The notes beneath the pieces were generated by a model. That model was not told where the DNA came from, searched no databases, and saw nothing but the letters and a program-made list of their open reading frames with translations. Made by a program: the position numbers and the translations under genes. Shown piece after piece: positions 354-46,934 of a stretch of DNA of 56,725 nucleotides. Origin of the DNA: a virus (Duplodnaviria; Caudoviricetes); the IMG/VR virus record IMGVR_UViG_3300020468_000008, positions 1 to 56,725 of that record; one strand, 5' to 3'. The number at the start of each line of letters is the position of its first letter. Position 1 is the first letter of the stretch.

Positions 354-507
354 AAGTAAAAGCCGTAATATTCCTACAAATAAAAAGCTATATGCCAGAA
401 TAAAGGCAAAAACGAAGAGAAAGTTTGCAGTTTATCCCAGTGCATATGCAAATGCTTATTTAGTACGAGAGTACAAAAAAGCAGGAGGGAGATACCGTCG
501 TGGCTAG
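322..507 (+). CDS. 61-aa basic protein with YPSAYAN motif
   Basis: GTG start after AGGAAG; K/R-rich; LYARIKAKTKRKFAVYPSAYANAYLVREYKKAGGRY resembles a small basic family seen in marine viruses (recollection, not searched). Confidence 0.75.
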   Translation: MAARKRRKSTKSKSRNIPTNKKLYARIKAKTKRKFAVYPSAYANAYLVREYKKAGGRYRRG

Positions 508-802
508 ACGAGGTGGCTTAACAAAATGGTTCAAAGAAAACTGGGTAGATATTAGTCGTCCAAAAAAAGGTGGCGGGTATAAAAAGTGTGGGCGTAAAAA
601 AGCTAAAACAAGTAGAAAAAAGTATCCTAAATGTGTTCCCGCTTCGAAAGCTGCCAGAATGACCGCTAGCCAAAAAAGGTCCGCAATAAAACGAAAAAGA
701 AGCAAAGCTCAAGGCGTTCGTGGTAAACCCACAAATGTTAGAACTTTTGCTAAGAGGAGAAAGAGAAAAGTAACACGTTCATCTCGAAAGAGACGGAAGT
801 AG
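500..802 (+). CDS. 100-aa basic protein with GGLTKWFKENWVDI and two Cys
   Basis: GTG start after GGAGGGAG; K/R-rich; motif recalls DUF5872-like viral proteins (not verified). Confidence 0.8.
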   Translation: MARRGGLTKWFKENWVDISRPKKGGGYKKCGRKKAKTSRKKYPKCVPASKAARMTASQKRSAIKRKRSKAQGVRGKPTNVRTFAKRRKRKVTRSSRKRRK

Positions 803-820
803 GGATTCCCGAAGGAACGC
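776..820 (+). ncRNA. glnA-type (glutamine-I) riboswitch aptamer
   Basis: CGTTC-A-TCTC-GAAA-GAGA-CGGAAGTA-GGG-ATT-CCC-GAAG-GAACG-C. P1 CGTTC(776-780)/GAACG(815-819); P2 TCTC/GAGA with GAAA tetraloop; P3 GGG/CCC with E-loop AGUA/GAA. Matches the known CGUU...CGGAAGUA...GAAG.AACGC glnA RNA layout and lies upstream of a YRG peptide gene. Confidence 0.85.
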
Positions 821-847
821 ACAAAAAGTGTTTTTAAGGAGAATATT

Positions 848-904
848 ATGTCTTGCCAAACGTTCATCTATCGTGGTGTCAAGTATACTAAGCCAAAGAA
901 ATAA
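848..904 (+). CDS. 18-aa YRG-motif peptide, DUF4278 / GS-inactivating-factor-like (not in ORF track)
   Basis: RBS AAGGAG at 836-841, 6-nt spacer, ATG 848; MSCQTFIYRGVKYTKPKK*, TAA 902-904. YRGxxY is the hallmark of short DUF4278 proteins found downstream of glutamine riboswitches. Confidence 0.75.
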   Translation: MSCQTFIYRGVKYTKPKK

Positions 905-905
905 T

Positions 906-1109
906 ATGGAAATAGATACACAACCAATAATAGTACCCCCGAGGCCCACTATCATAACATCTACCGAGAAAGTTCGGTATGAGGTCTATAGTGGGCCTCA
1001 ACCAGGTACTTATCAAGTTACAAAAGATGTATGGGAATTAACCATGTATAATCGAGCGGGAGTAATAAAAACAAGTACAAATAGAACCTCCCTAGACTTT
1101 ATGATATGA
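906..1109 (+). CDS. hypothetical protein (67 aa)
   Basis: In frame with track ORF 828..1109. ATG 906 lies 1 nt after the peptide stop and is preferred because 828-905 holds the peptide gene. Stop overlaps next ATG (ATGA). Confidence 0.6.
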   Translation: MEIDTQPIIVPPRPTIITSTEKVRYEVYSGPQPGTYQVTKDVWELTMYNRAGVIKTSTNRTSLDFMI

Positions 1110-3686: not shown

Positions 3687-4991
3687 ATGACAGTACAAAT
3701 AAGCAGAGCAGACATCACTGGAGATGCTCTGCTAAATTTACAATCTGAGACACGCTTCCTCAAGCTTCCAGTAGACCCATATTTGGAGCTACTCGGCATC
3801 ACACCGCTACCTTCTCAGGTAGCAATCATAAATGCGATCAACAATCCTAAGTACAGATTTGTATGTGCCGCAGTGAGTCGCAGACAGGGCAAAACATACA
3901 TCGCAAACATTATTGGGCAATTAGTATCACTAGTTCCCAATTCAAACATTCTTATTATGTCTCCAAACTACGCGTTGTCTCAGATTTCTTTTGACTTACA
4001 AAGAAATCTTATTAAGCATTTTGACTTGGAAGTAGTAAAAGACAATGCAAAAGATAAAGTTATTGAGTTGAGTAACGGTTCAACTGTAAGAATGGGCTCA
4101 GTAAACCAAGTTGATTCCTGTGTTGGTCGTAGCTATGATTTAATTATATTTGACGAAGCGGCGTTGGCAGACGGACGTGATGCGTTTAATGTAGCACTTC
4201 GACCGACATTGGATAAAGATAATTCAAAAGCAATTTTTGTTTCAACCCCAAGGGGCAGGAACAACTGGTTTGCCGAGTTTTTTGATAGAGGATTTAATGA
4301 TGAGTTTGCTGAGTGGTGTTCTATAAGAGCAACTTATGTAGATAACCCTAGAATGAGCCCCTCAGATATAGATGAAGCTCGTAAAAGTATGTCAGACGCA
4401 GAATTTAAACAAGAATACGAAGCAGATTTTAATACTTATGAAGGACAAATTTGGAATTTTAATCATGAAACATGTATAAGTAATAATGAAGCCTTGGATA
4501 CCGTTAATATGGATATATTTGCGGGTCTTGATGTTGGTTATCGTGATCCTACTGCTTTTTGTGTAATTGGTTATGATTGGGAAGAAGAGTTATATTATAT
4601 TCTAGATGAATACTTGGATTCTGAAAAAACAACGGAACAACACGCGTTAGAAATACAGCGTTTAAGTGAGAAATGGGATATCGATTTTATATTCATTGAT
4701 TCTGCAGCACAGCAAACACGATATGATTTCGCACTGCAATACGATATTTCAACTAGTAACGCAAAAAAGTCTGTGCTTGATGGCATCGCACACGTAGCAG
4801 GAATAGTAGACAATGATAAGTTATTTGTCGATCAGAGATGTGATGAAACTTTGTCGTGCTTAGATCAATATCAGTGGGATCCCAATCCAAATTTAGCAAA
4901 AGAAAAACCAAAACATAATCGAGCCTCGCACATGGCAGACGCATTAAGGTATGCATTGTATTCATTTGAAACAACTCAGAGCGGCTTTTAA
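3687..4991 (+). CDS. terL: terminase large subunit (T5-like)
   Basis: Walker A SRRQGKT, Walker B LIIFDEAA, coupling motif STP, nuclease GLDVG and HMADALRY. Confidence 0.95.
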   Translation: MTVQISRADITGDALLNLQSETRFLKLPVDPYLELLGITPLPSQVAIINAINNPKYRFVCAAVSRRQGKTYIANIIGQLVSLVPNSNILIMSPNYALSQISFDLQRNLIKHFDLEVVKDNAKDKVIELSNGSTVRMGSVNQVDSCVGRSYDLIIFDEAALADGRDAFNVALRPTLDKDNSKAIFVSTPRGRNNWFAEFFDRGFNDEFAEWCSIRATYVDNPRMSPSDIDEARKSMSDAEFKQEYEADFNTYEGQIWNFNHETCISNNEALDTVNMDIFAGLDVGYRDPTAFCVIGYDWEEELYYILDEYLDSEKTTEQHALEIQRLSEKWDIDFIFIDSAAQQTRYDFALQYDISTSNAKKSVLDGIAHVAGIVDNDKLFVDQRCDETLSCLDQYQWDPNPNLAKEKPKHNRASHMADALRYALYSFETTQSGF

Positions 4992-5002
4992 TAACCCCTA
5001 GC

Positions 5003-5042
5003 AAAAATAATGTTTGACAATTTATCTTCCAGAGGTTAAAAT
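5003..5042 (+). promoter_or_regulatory. sigma70-type promoter with AAAAATAA upstream element
   Basis: TTGACA 5014-5019, 17 bp spacer, TAAAAT 5037-5042. Confidence 0.7.
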
Positions 5043-5049
5043 GGCAATA

Positions 5050-5433
5050 ATGAAAAAGCTCAAGAGAGACCCAGTAAAGTATATACGGGATCGAGCAAAG
5101 TCAAAATACAAAAAAGACAATGAATGTTTTATTTGTGGAACAGAAAAACAATTAGACTTTCACCATTTTTATTCTCTTGCACCTCTACTAAGGCTCTGGC
5201 TACAGAAAAAAACAAAAGAAAGACCAGAGCATTACACAAATGAGTATATTACTATTTGGCGAGATGAGTTTATAGAAGATAATTGGGCTAAGTTATACGA
5301 ACACACAGTGACTATCTGTCATGCACATCACCGGGAGTTACACAAAATTTACGGAAGAAATCCAGGACTTGGAACAGCGAATAAACAAATGCGCTGGGTA
5401 GACATTCAAAGAGAAAAGCATGGCATGGTATAA
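5050..5433 (+). CDS. HNH-type endonuclease (T5 nicking endonuclease-like)
   Basis: CFIC...LDFHH...TICHAHHRELH; lies between terL and portal as in T5. Start is ATG 5050 or 5041. Confidence 0.75.
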   Translation: MKKLKRDPVKYIRDRAKSKYKKDNECFICGTEKQLDFHHFYSLAPLLRLWLQKKTKERPEHYTNEYITIWRDEFIEDNWAKLYEHTVTICHAHHRELHKIYGRNPGLGTANKQMRWVDIQREKHGMV

Positions 5434-45503: not shown

Positions 45504-46934
45504 ATGGCAACTAACTTTCCAAACAGTCCTTCAAATGGTGCAACTCATACTTTTGGGGGTACTACATATACCTATAGTACTTCTGTAGGTGCTTGGACTG
45601 CTCCTGCATCTGGGGGAGGGGGAGGTGCCTCCGTAACTGTATCAGAAACTGCTCCTTCTAGTGCTTCTGTAGGAGATCTATGGTTTGATCCAAGTGTATT
45701 GAAGACATTTGTCTACTATAATGATGGTACTGCAAATCAGTGGGTTCAGAATAATCCTACAGGTAGCGGAGGAGGTGGTAGTGCCGGAGCATCTGTAACA
45801 GCATCGGATACTGCTCCCTCTTCTCCAAGTGCAGGAGATTTATGGTATAAGTCAGACACAAATGCACTATATGTATACTATAACGATGGAGACTCAAGTC
45901 AATGGGTCGGAATATCTGGACCTGCTGGAGCCACGGGAGCTACGGGAGCCACGGGAGCCACGGGAGCTGCTGCTACTGGCTATGGACAAGTTCCAATTGT
46001 TTATACAGAGCCACCTACAACTCATACTTTAAATAGTGATGGTAGTACTAGCACTGTGCAGATGCAGGCAGTTGATCCTGAAGGAACCTCAATCACCTAT
46101 GCAATTGCATATGCAAATGCTACAAATGCACGCCCAAATCAACTTGCAGCAGATACAAGTATAAATCAAACTACAGGAACTTTTACTTTTGATCCTTCTA
46201 CAACTACTTCTCATGCAGGAAGTTTTAAAGCACGACTAAGTGCTTCAGATGGAATTACACACGCTACTCGTTTTGTAGATTTTACTTTGAGTTTTTATCC
46301 TATTGCGAGCAGTGCTATACTTGCACAATATCATTTTTATGACACAAATTCGTATAATCCTTCTACAAGTACGACTGCCTTGAATGATATTTCAGGAAAT
46401 AGTAATAATCAAACAATTACTAATCCTGGGACTCATACTTCAGACAGTAATCTGACTTTTAATGCTAACACTTATATTAATTTCACTGGTTTGAATGCAA
46501 CAAAAGCTTGGTTTGTATTACTGTATCCTACTACTGGATGGGATGCGACAGTTTTATGGAATGAGGGCACTGCTGGCAGTGTTTTTCACTCGACTTTCCA
46601 TTCTACCGATTCATCACATGGTTACTATAGTGGTTATTCAGCTCACTCTGGAGAAACAATTGTAGATAGAGTTAATGGTACAAATCCAACTAATAGACAG
46701 ACAGCATATAATGCTATTGATATAGGTAAAATGAATAGTGTTATAAACTCAGGAACAAATATGACACCTGGACTTCAATACGCTAATTACCCAAGTTGGG
46801 ATGATGAACACCTTGTAAGAGCAATGGTATTTTTTAATAGAGCAATTACTTTAACAGAAATGGAAGCTTTACACAATTTCTATAGAACAAATTGGCTTGC
46901 AGCAGGCGGCACAATGCCAACGTGGGGTAACTAA
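45504..46934 (+). CDS. virion adhesin-like protein: NFP module, two GDLW modules, collagen-like linker, Ig-like module, lectin-like C-terminus
   Basis: Motifs visible in translation; C-terminal FFNRAITLTEM recalls a LamG/ConA end. Confidence 0.7.
   Translation: MATNFPNSPSNGATHTFGGTTYTYSTSVGAWTAPASGGGGGASVTVSETAPSSASVGDLWFDPSVLKTFVYYNDGTANQWVQNNPTGSGGGGSAGASVTASDTAPSSPSAGDLWYKSDTNALYVYYNDGDSSQWVGISGPAGATGATGATGATGAAATGYGQVPIVYTEPPTTHTLNSDGSTSTVQMQAVDPEGTSITYAIAYANATNARPNQLAADTSINQTTGTFTFDPSTTTSHAGSFKARLSASDGITHATRFVDFTLSFYPIASSAILAQYHFYDTNSYNPSTSTTALNDISGNSNNQTITNPGTHTSDSNLTFNANTYINFTGLNATKAWFVLLYPTTGWDATVLWNEGTAGSVFHSTFHSTDSSHGYYSGYSAHSGETIVDRVNGTNPTNRQTAYNAIDIGKMNSVINSGTNMTPGLQYANYPSWDDEHLVRAMVFFNRAITLTEMEALHNFYRTNWLAAGGTMPTWGN

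Follow-up and report, generated by a model that had tools for sequence, protein, structure and literature searches.

A glutamine aptamer and an 18-residue YRG micro-ORF in a marine T5-like phage genome

A stretch of DNA of 56,725 nt from an uncultured marine phage (hereafter the window) carries near its start an RNA motif of the glutamine-binding type, followed by a ribosome-binding site and an ORF of 18 codons. The locus raises the question of whether a phage uses a glutamine switch to produce such a short peptide and, if so, which target the peptide would have in the host. In Synechocystis sp. PCC 6803, glutamine raises expression through the leader switch of gifB with a KD of about 2.3 mM, and the aptamer together with a DUF4278 gene was reported in 25 of the 28 cyanobacterial genomes having the aptamer (PMC6212724, excerpted text). 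DUF4278 is the N-terminal part of IF17, where it is disposable for function although it contributes to stability and apparently makes inactivation more efficient; the arginine that matters most (R110) lies in the IF7-like C-terminal part (PMC6316151, excerpted text). This makes DUF4278 a puzzle: it is the commonest gene behind cyanobacterial glutamine riboswitches, yet the corresponding part of IF17 is dispensable for the shut-off of glutamine synthetase (GS). An earlier note on this DNA had read the locus as a phage glutamine riboswitch controlling a YRG peptide related to DUF4278, with GS or another nitrogen enzyme as target. The aptamer, the conserved YRG micro-ORF, the T5-like context and, as a prediction, the ON direction were retained after the present analysis, while the implied novelty, the GS target and the membership in DUF4278 were not.

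Glutamine aptamer and predicted switch

The whole window was compared with 4227 Rfam families using cmscan. The sole match was RF01739, the type-1 glutamine aptamer (glnA RNA), at 774..823 on the plus strand. It covers model positions 1–53 of 53 and scores 56.5 bits with a cut-off of 35 (E 7.9e-10), which bears out the identity proposed in the earlier note. Direct inspection of the sequence located P1 (CGTTC at 776–780 with GAACG at 815–819), P2 (TCTC at 782–785, a GAAA loop and GAGA at 790–793), the junction CGGAAGTA at 794–801, and P3 (GGG at 802–804 with CCC at 808–810) followed by GAAG at 811–814. The hallmarks of the RF01739 three-stem junction are all present, namely the conserved P1, CGGAAGUA, GAAG and covariation support. 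The AAGGAG sequence and the 18-codon ORF were likewise found in the sequence as first described.

Covariation was analysed in 17 mutually related aptamers, that of the window plus 16 from a set of 21 single-YRG cassettes. Paired cells amount to 96.1%, and both sides change in 5 of the 12 pairs, located in P2 and P3, while P1 is invariant in this set, being fixed by the search patterns. None of 500 shuffles matched this level of covariation, and slid controls were only 35–62% paired. The isolated aptamer shows no unusual stability (folding energy z 0.15), a point overlooked in the earlier note; the evidence for the aptamer is therefore the covariance-model match and its conservation, not folding energy. 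The aptamer very probably binds glutamine.

Contigs from two other runs (X3, 518–969; X6, 714–1017) cross the cassette without any gap and show 2 differences, which rules out an assembly error. Contigs from RNA libraries, which can contain DNA, cover 628–935 (X10) and 712–862 (X18) at a depth of 2–4. In the marine metatranscriptome X18, a 31-nt contig with a depth of 1200 matches 776–803, the 5' half of the aptamer; it is not assignable to either phage or host because SAR86 aptamers share 776–803.

The aptamer overlaps the end of the upstream gene (500..802, plus strand), which encodes a 100-aa basic protein matching phrog_23735. The overlap comprises the last nine codons of this ORF, which run through P1, P2 and the junction to a stop codon (TAG, 800–802) inside the aptamer, a feature that the earlier note had overlooked. 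A frameshift error was considered as the cause of this overlap and ruled out by the gap-free contigs in other runs.

As in other RF01739 switches, the aptamer is placed 5' of a ribosome site and an ORF, with a predicted alternative fold. The Shine-Dalgarno (SD) sequence AAGGAG (836..841, plus strand) is located 6 nt before the ATG. In the ligand-free fold of minimum free energy, the strand at 828..835 (plus strand) is predicted to pair with 813–820, the 3' strand of P1, thus acting as an anti-aptamer strand, and AAGGAG is predicted to pair with the 3' strand of P3. The same spacer was found in three other viral contigs, at a different site within the gene cluster.

Opening of the ribosome site (834–850) was calculated to cost 6.45 kcal/mol in the free RNA and 3.66 kcal/mol with the aptamer imposed. 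This difference was equalled by none of 200 spacer shuffles; as closed a free state was reached by 16 of the 200. Under rough constraints, a shift of more than 1 kcal toward the open state was obtained for 16 of the 21 single-YRG cassettes, and the opposite shift for none, while the same rough constraints opened 23 and closed 13 of 76 non-YRG cassettes. Imposing P1 alone left the SD largely paired. The aptamer fold lies 6.7 kcal/mol above the free ensemble in the folding model, and switching would therefore need tertiary contacts or co-transcriptional capture. These folds favour a translational switch that is likely turned on by glutamine, and the predicted direction agrees with the tested gifB switch of Synechocystis. 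With a ribosome placed at the upstream stop codon, the opening cost is 3.42 kcal/mol, about the same as in the aptamer-formed state; ribosomes terminating the upstream ORF inside the aptamer could, according to the model, open the site without glutamine. A sigma-70 scan gave 5 sites for 4.0 expected, and none of them was located ahead of the aptamer.

The YRG peptide and its phage context

The micro-ORF (848..904, plus strand) runs from ATG 848 to TAA 902–904 and encodes the basic 18-aa peptide MSCQTFIYRGVKYTKPKK with a single YRGVKY unit. The combination of SD, ATG and YRGxxY was obtained in none of 200,000 shuffled 130-mers of the window, and ATG with YRGxxY but without SD in 7, in line with the earlier assertion that chance is unlikely. 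Across 16 aligned phage peptides, there is no variation at Y, R, G, V or the second Y, and within the six-codon core third positions vary in 6 of 6 codons, first and second positions in 1 of 6 each, the alignment and codon sets being partly chosen by the peptide pattern. The micro-ORF is quite probably translated.

When the peptide was submitted to Pfam in frame with two upstream codons, no family was found at E up to 10, and the threshold of DUF4278 (PF14105; 25.3 bits) was not reached, so that membership in this family could not be upheld. Three-repeat SAR86 (30.2 and 27.0 bits), phage and cyanobacterial peptides do pass the DUF4278 model. The family is characterised by 2–3 YRG repeats in about 55 residues, and the cellular members examined mostly have three repeats; the window peptide has one repeat in 18 aa. 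On a profile built from 89 cellular riboswitch-led units, the YRG unit of the window scores 9.9 and is equalled by 2 of 89 background YRG sites. Since it scores above the other 87, the peptide is considered as one DUF4278-type unit. The single-unit form of 16–23 aa was not found among the cellular loci examined. With regard to IF7 and IF17, the 18-mer contains only the YRG unit and neither the IF7-like C-terminal region nor its critical arginines. A PDB sequence search gave no useful match.

The peptide stop codon is followed after 1 nt by the start of a 67-aa ORF (906..1109, plus strand), which relatives have without the cassette. Further genes of the window encode small basic proteins, spanins, terminase, portal, a fused protease-capsid, tail proteins and many fibres. 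The terminase large subunit (3687..4991, plus strand), identified by PHROG and Pfam, was used as clade marker. The closest cultured terminases are 48–50% identical and belong to Serratia phage Slocum, Pectobacterium phage My1 and Vibrio phages, which we take to be T5-like. The gene block fits the T5-type block of terminase, portal, protease-capsid and tail genes of Demerecviridae, the record consisting of the window alone and being a fragment. Together with the PHROG gene content, the terminases support the T5-like, non-cyanophage context that had been noticed earlier. All runs containing at least half of the words of the stretch are marine metagenomes, runs with small word shares being excluded. 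ARAGORN detected no tRNA in the window, and annotated phages, when searched by blastn with the cassette and with the aptamer, gave chance matches only.

The region 76–1402 is a series of short Lys/Arg-rich ORFs, the order of which is shuffled among relatives. One of these neighbours (222–353) has a second YRG, which scores below the background mean on the repeat profile. In the part of the window from 18813 to 55349, the T5-like backbone has lambda-like tail-tip genes (minor tail L, JAB-NlpC/P60 and a J-type fibre of 2668 aa), after which come about 25 kb of fibre-like accessory genes, their domains being Mtd_N, laminin-G and glycine-rich.

Distribution of the cassette and counterparts in SAR86

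In viral contigs, the exact aptamer pattern was found at 120 loci or more. A closed ORF with an SD-like site lies behind 116 of the 120 viral aptamers listed, each of at most 78 aa and 115 of them with net positive charge: 2 are short single-YRG ORFs, 18 other YRG ORFs, 40 have an early WC/YC motif and 56 belong to none of these classes. The four remaining aptamers are either cut by the locus end (2) or without ORF (2). It follows that phage aptamers gate small basic peptides, of which the YRG type is one class of several. An enzyme-sized gene was observed behind none of the 120. Given these loci and the phage glutamine riboswitches already in print (PMC9004378, PMC9964418, both in their excerpted text), the novelty implied in the earlier note cannot be claimed for the riboswitch as such.

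The pairing of aptamer and peptide was followed in several sets of loci, which overlap in contigs. Of 80 loci fetched with a neighbouring gene, 4 have the aptamer, and so do 6 of 80 relatives by terminase, a set in which many loci are truncated upstream; each time the aptamer is followed by a YRGVxY peptide of 16–17 aa. Two further scans blind to the peptide (122 loci) revealed a short single-YRG peptide at all 14 loci sharing genes with the window. Conservation of the pair in relatives, which the earlier note had named as a check along with stem covariation, was thus observed. A scan making use of the peptide gave 32 loci, podoviruses included. In HMO-2011-type podoviruses, the aptamer and a peptide of 16–17 aa are located directly 3' of the major capsid gene (L205:4620–4742; L221, near 4980–5080), the capsid protein being 61% identical to that of Pelagibacter phage HTVC115P and 44% to that of HMO-2011. 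That ocean phages of two unrelated groups keep a natural one-repeat form suggests the single unit to be the working element, and such a unit can be directly tested as a synthetic 18-mer.

On a terminase tree of 40 rows, from which aptamer-free loci with an upstream part shorter than 3.3 kb, incomplete terminases, terminases below 65% identity and duplicates were left out, the cassette is present in 9 rows and absent in 31, corresponding to at least 5 gains or losses. Since the aptamer regex misses long P3 inserts, absence was re-checked with Rfam in 12 of the 31 rows and on four whole records; no aptamer was found in any of the 12, and the positive control was found. In the nearest relative (L355, terminase 94% identical), the two flanking genes are joined without the cassette. 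The cassette is thus a mobile and optional unit of about 130 bp, and it is dispensable, as indicated by the 31 rows lacking it. It is real and conserved, and probably functional.

Regarding the host, terminases 82, 72 and 71% identical to that of the window were found with the same gene block in 2 of 266 assemblies of the SAR86 order, defined here as the order holding the record titled SAR86. The 82% identical terminase nests in the clade of the window. Control searches gave none in 401 and none in 187 assemblies of two alphaproteobacterial orders, and one in 401 (28–29% identity only) in the order of a Porticoccaceae record. SAR86 is a probable host and no more than that, because the two assemblies may be bins into which viral contigs have strayed. 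One of the three phage contigs in the host-linked assemblies was scanned with Rfam, and no aptamer was detected on it. A related T5-like contig in a SAR86-order assembly (L475:554–1849, G133:C42) carries a full amtB upstream of the terminase gene. The cassette of the window brings metabolite-sensing RNA control to T5-like siphoviruses, probably those of SAR86, an abundant ocean group.

In GTDB genomes, the aptamer pattern occurs at 122 loci or more, in cyanobacteria, SAR86, other marine Gammaproteobacteria and marine Alphaproteobacteria. Heterotrophs have it ahead of genes named by sequence likeness as GS, ammonium transporter, outer-membrane and small basic genes, and the own GS gene of SAR86 sits behind an RF01739-type aptamer. 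Non-cyanobacterial aptamers of SAR86 and marine Alphaproteobacteria are often arranged in tandem (L233–L354, L435–L448). These loci also give taxa for metagenomic glnA-linked aptamers that are left unassigned in the excerpted text of PMC6212724.

DUF4278 was detected in 22 of 201 SAR86-order genomes, in 9 of them over the cut-off, and RF01739 is present at 11 of the 12 DUF4278 loci tested. Two of the 22 loci adjoin amtB, and one of them reads glnK–amtB–aptamer–three-repeat YRG gene. SAR86 aptamers before three-repeat YRG genes display a long P3 insert, of 78 and 91 nt in two alignments (L451–L468), and 28 nt of the window aptamer are identical to some SAR86 copies. When the SAR86 peptide was searched in the Atlas, clusters of DUF4278 were returned that stayed below the 0.9 level. 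The GlnD-type domain was found in 1 of 12 DUF4278-positive genomes as opposed to 44 of 89 other SAR86-order genomes (101 in total; one weak match with internal stops was scored negative), with a Fisher p of 0.011 that ignores kinship and genome incompleteness. PII is kept in 159 of 201 SAR86-order genomes. The idea of a SAR86 lacking PII was rejected on the basis of this count, and the peptide is consequently no substitute for PII.

Possible function of the peptide and relation to known systems

The T-loop of PII reads Y46-R47-G48-x-E50-Y51, and the peptide has the YRGxxY core of residues 46–51. The T-loop plugs AmtB and carries the uridylylated Tyr51, and marine phages carry GlnK and AmtB (PMC4285133 and PMC8115048, excerpted texts). 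The peptide thus shares with PII and with virus-encoded glnK–amtB the core motif and the link to nitrogen status. In contrast to PII, it has no PII body, no nucleotide or 2-oxoglutarate site and no trimer, and the acidic residues of the T-loop are replaced by basic or hydrophobic ones: the window peptide has Phe at the place of Glu44 and Lys at that of Glu50, and the latter is Lys in 20 of 22 phage rows. PII loops obtained modest scores on the YRG-unit profile, equalled by 11–19 of 89 background sites, and no more than 33 of 89 cellular YRG units have the second Tyr. A complex prediction of the SAR86 AmtB monomer with the adjoining 53-aa three-repeat peptide, used as stand-in for the 18-mer, gave 0.09 and 0.08 for a mark of 0.34 and speaks neither for nor against binding.

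The reading which we prefer, tentatively, is that the peptide is a one-repeat decoy of the PII/YRG nitrogen signal of the host, acting at the GlnK–AmtB node. A mobile cassette of about 130 bp, located upstream of lysis and packaging genes in a marine T5-like phage with SAR86 as probable host, would be co-transcribed with its neighbours, as the lack of promoter space in relatives indicates. Without glutamine, the 3' strands of P1 and P3 would pair with 828–842 and hide the ribosome site; glutamine would lock the three-way junction, AAGGAG would become free and the 18-aa peptide would be made. Being a single copy of the YRG unit, of which SAR86 makes a three-repeat version under an RF01739 aptamer, the peptide would occupy the T-loop/YRG binding site, with AmtB as first candidate, just when the host would stop uptake. 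It would block, or else copy, the signal of nitrogen sufficiency, and nitrogen would keep flowing to virion production while the host would throttle the supply, a role comparable to the one proposed for viral GlnK.

Counted in favour of the decoy are the peptide pairing at 14 of 14 loci, the SAR86 genome with glnK, amtB, aptamer and three-repeat gene in a row, the contrast between DUF4278 and GlnD, and amtB on a related phage contig. Counted against it are a PII likeness limited to the core, the fact that only 2 of 22 SAR86 DUF4278 loci lie by amtB, and the absence of the cassette from 31 of 40 tree rows. More doubtful is the extended proposal that marine T5-like siphoviruses and HMO-2011-type podoviruses share a glutamine-induced copy of the PII T-loop tip of 16–23 aa, as a decoy versus a riboswitch-made three-repeat YRG protein by which GlnD-less SAR86 lineages would pass the glutamine signal to trimeric AmtB or another PII target. 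If true, this would provide a first function for DUF4278, and the peptide would count among the smallest effectors through which phages act on nitrogen control in the host.

Several other explanations were weighed against the decoy. The peptide may be a small basic nucleic-acid-binding or virion-core peptide, with the switch tying supply or assembly timing to nitrogen and with no signalling target in the host. The position of the cassette amid the Lys/Arg-rich ORFs of 76–1402, its place directly after the capsid gene in podoviruses and the net positive charge of 115 of the 116 closed ORFs behind the listed viral aptamers, only 20 of which have a YRG, would all suit such a role. It is nevertheless unlikely, as the YRG unit of the window beats 87 of 89 background sites, whereas the YRG of 222–353 remains below their mean, and both SAR86 and cyanobacteria have the unit as a gene on the chromosome. 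A largely neutral passenger, consisting of a host-derived aptamer and repeat hopping among phage genomes and partly disabled here by upstream read-through, would account for the repeated gains or losses, the missing cassette at the same site in L355, the varying insertion sites among relatives and the upstream stop codon inside the aptamer. Considering that SD, start, frame and YRGVxY are conserved in two unrelated phage groups, with variation mainly at third codon positions, that P2 and P3 show compensatory changes, and that the 16–23-aa single-unit form is missing from the cellular loci examined, a passenger appears distinctly unlikely.

The GS target of the earlier note, with the peptide as a minimal IF17-like inactivator or modulator, is suggested by the cyanobacterial pairing of aptamer and DUF4278 gene, by the aptamer driving IF17 in Synechocystis (PMC6212724), by the contribution that the IF17 N-terminus seems to make to inactivation (PMC6316151) and by the aptamer leading the GS gene of SAR86. 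The DUF4278 part is however the disposable one in the excerpted text of PMC6316151, and the part bearing R110 has no equivalent in a peptide of one repeat. Furthermore, among the 12 DUF4278-positive SAR86 genomes, the GS family is represented in 11 solely by a short protein (open frames, about 330–360 aa) and in one not at all, the type of about 470 aa being absent. This target is consequently improbable. The same low probability is given to the ORF being a mere leader which couples glutamine sensing to 906–1109 or to later lysis genes. TAA 902–904 is indeed separated by 1 nt from ATG 906, for which no SD is evident, and a role in lysis timing was proposed for the switch of phage Melnitz (PMC9004378, excerpted text). 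The gene 3' of the peptide varies, however, with three different ORFs in 6 loci, homologues of 906–1109 occur without the cassette in L355, L382, L423 and L428, and an invariant YRGVxY would be superfluous in a pure leader.

The concept of a phage glutamine riboswitch and the pairing of aptamer and DUF4278 in cyanobacteria are already known. What is new is the one-repeat peptide form in T5-like phages and podoviruses and, in the genome of the window, the stop codon inside the aptamer. The gifB/IF17 leader has in common with the window the RF01739 family, a small ORF of the YRG/DUF4278 type behind it, an SD-hiding helix (proposed there, predicted here) and the ON logic. The window cassette differs by being phage-borne, by its 18-aa single repeat without IF7-like region, by the overlap of the aptamer with the upstream stop codon and by its non-cyanobacterial context. 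SAR86 shares with the window the aptamer family and the YRG unit; its protein has three repeats in 52–56 aa, often behind long-P3-insert or tandem aptamers, whereas the phage form has one repeat.

In the open-access literature, no paper was found in which a YRG peptide, a T5-like phage or mimicry of PII is connected with an aptamer of phage origin. The sister motif was reported in 2010 to be followed by short peptides; according to the excerpted main text of PMC2864571, a conserved motif in them is discussed in Additional File 1, which may already contain the PII likeness. RF01739 in SAR86 is mentioned in PMC12379486, a SAR86 phage is predicted in PMC5332604, where the excerpted text does not use the term T5-like, PMC7885011 lists only a host DUF4278 gene, and PMC9602691 mentions phage glutamine riboswitches in passing. 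Published phage cases comprise Methylophilales phage Melnitz, Pelagibacter phage Mosig, Prochlorococcus phage AG-345-P14 and related contigs (PMC9004378) as well as the glnA RNA of cyanophage S-CREM1 (PMC9964418). Like the phage of the window, all four are marine lytic phages with an RF01739 aptamer. Three of them (Melnitz, Mosig and S-CREM1) are however T4-like myoviruses for which tmRNA or lysis control was proposed, with no peptide linked in the excerpted texts, whereas the window belongs to a T5-like siphovirus with a YRG peptide. In Melnitz (MZ577097), the aptamer (46398–46446) is followed by an SD and an unannotated basic non-YRG ORF of 32 aa (L496:1572–1670); the CDS annotated there in the record lies on the other strand. 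The Melnitz switch more likely gates this 32-aa ORF than the upstream tmRNA proposed in the excerpted text of PMC9004378.
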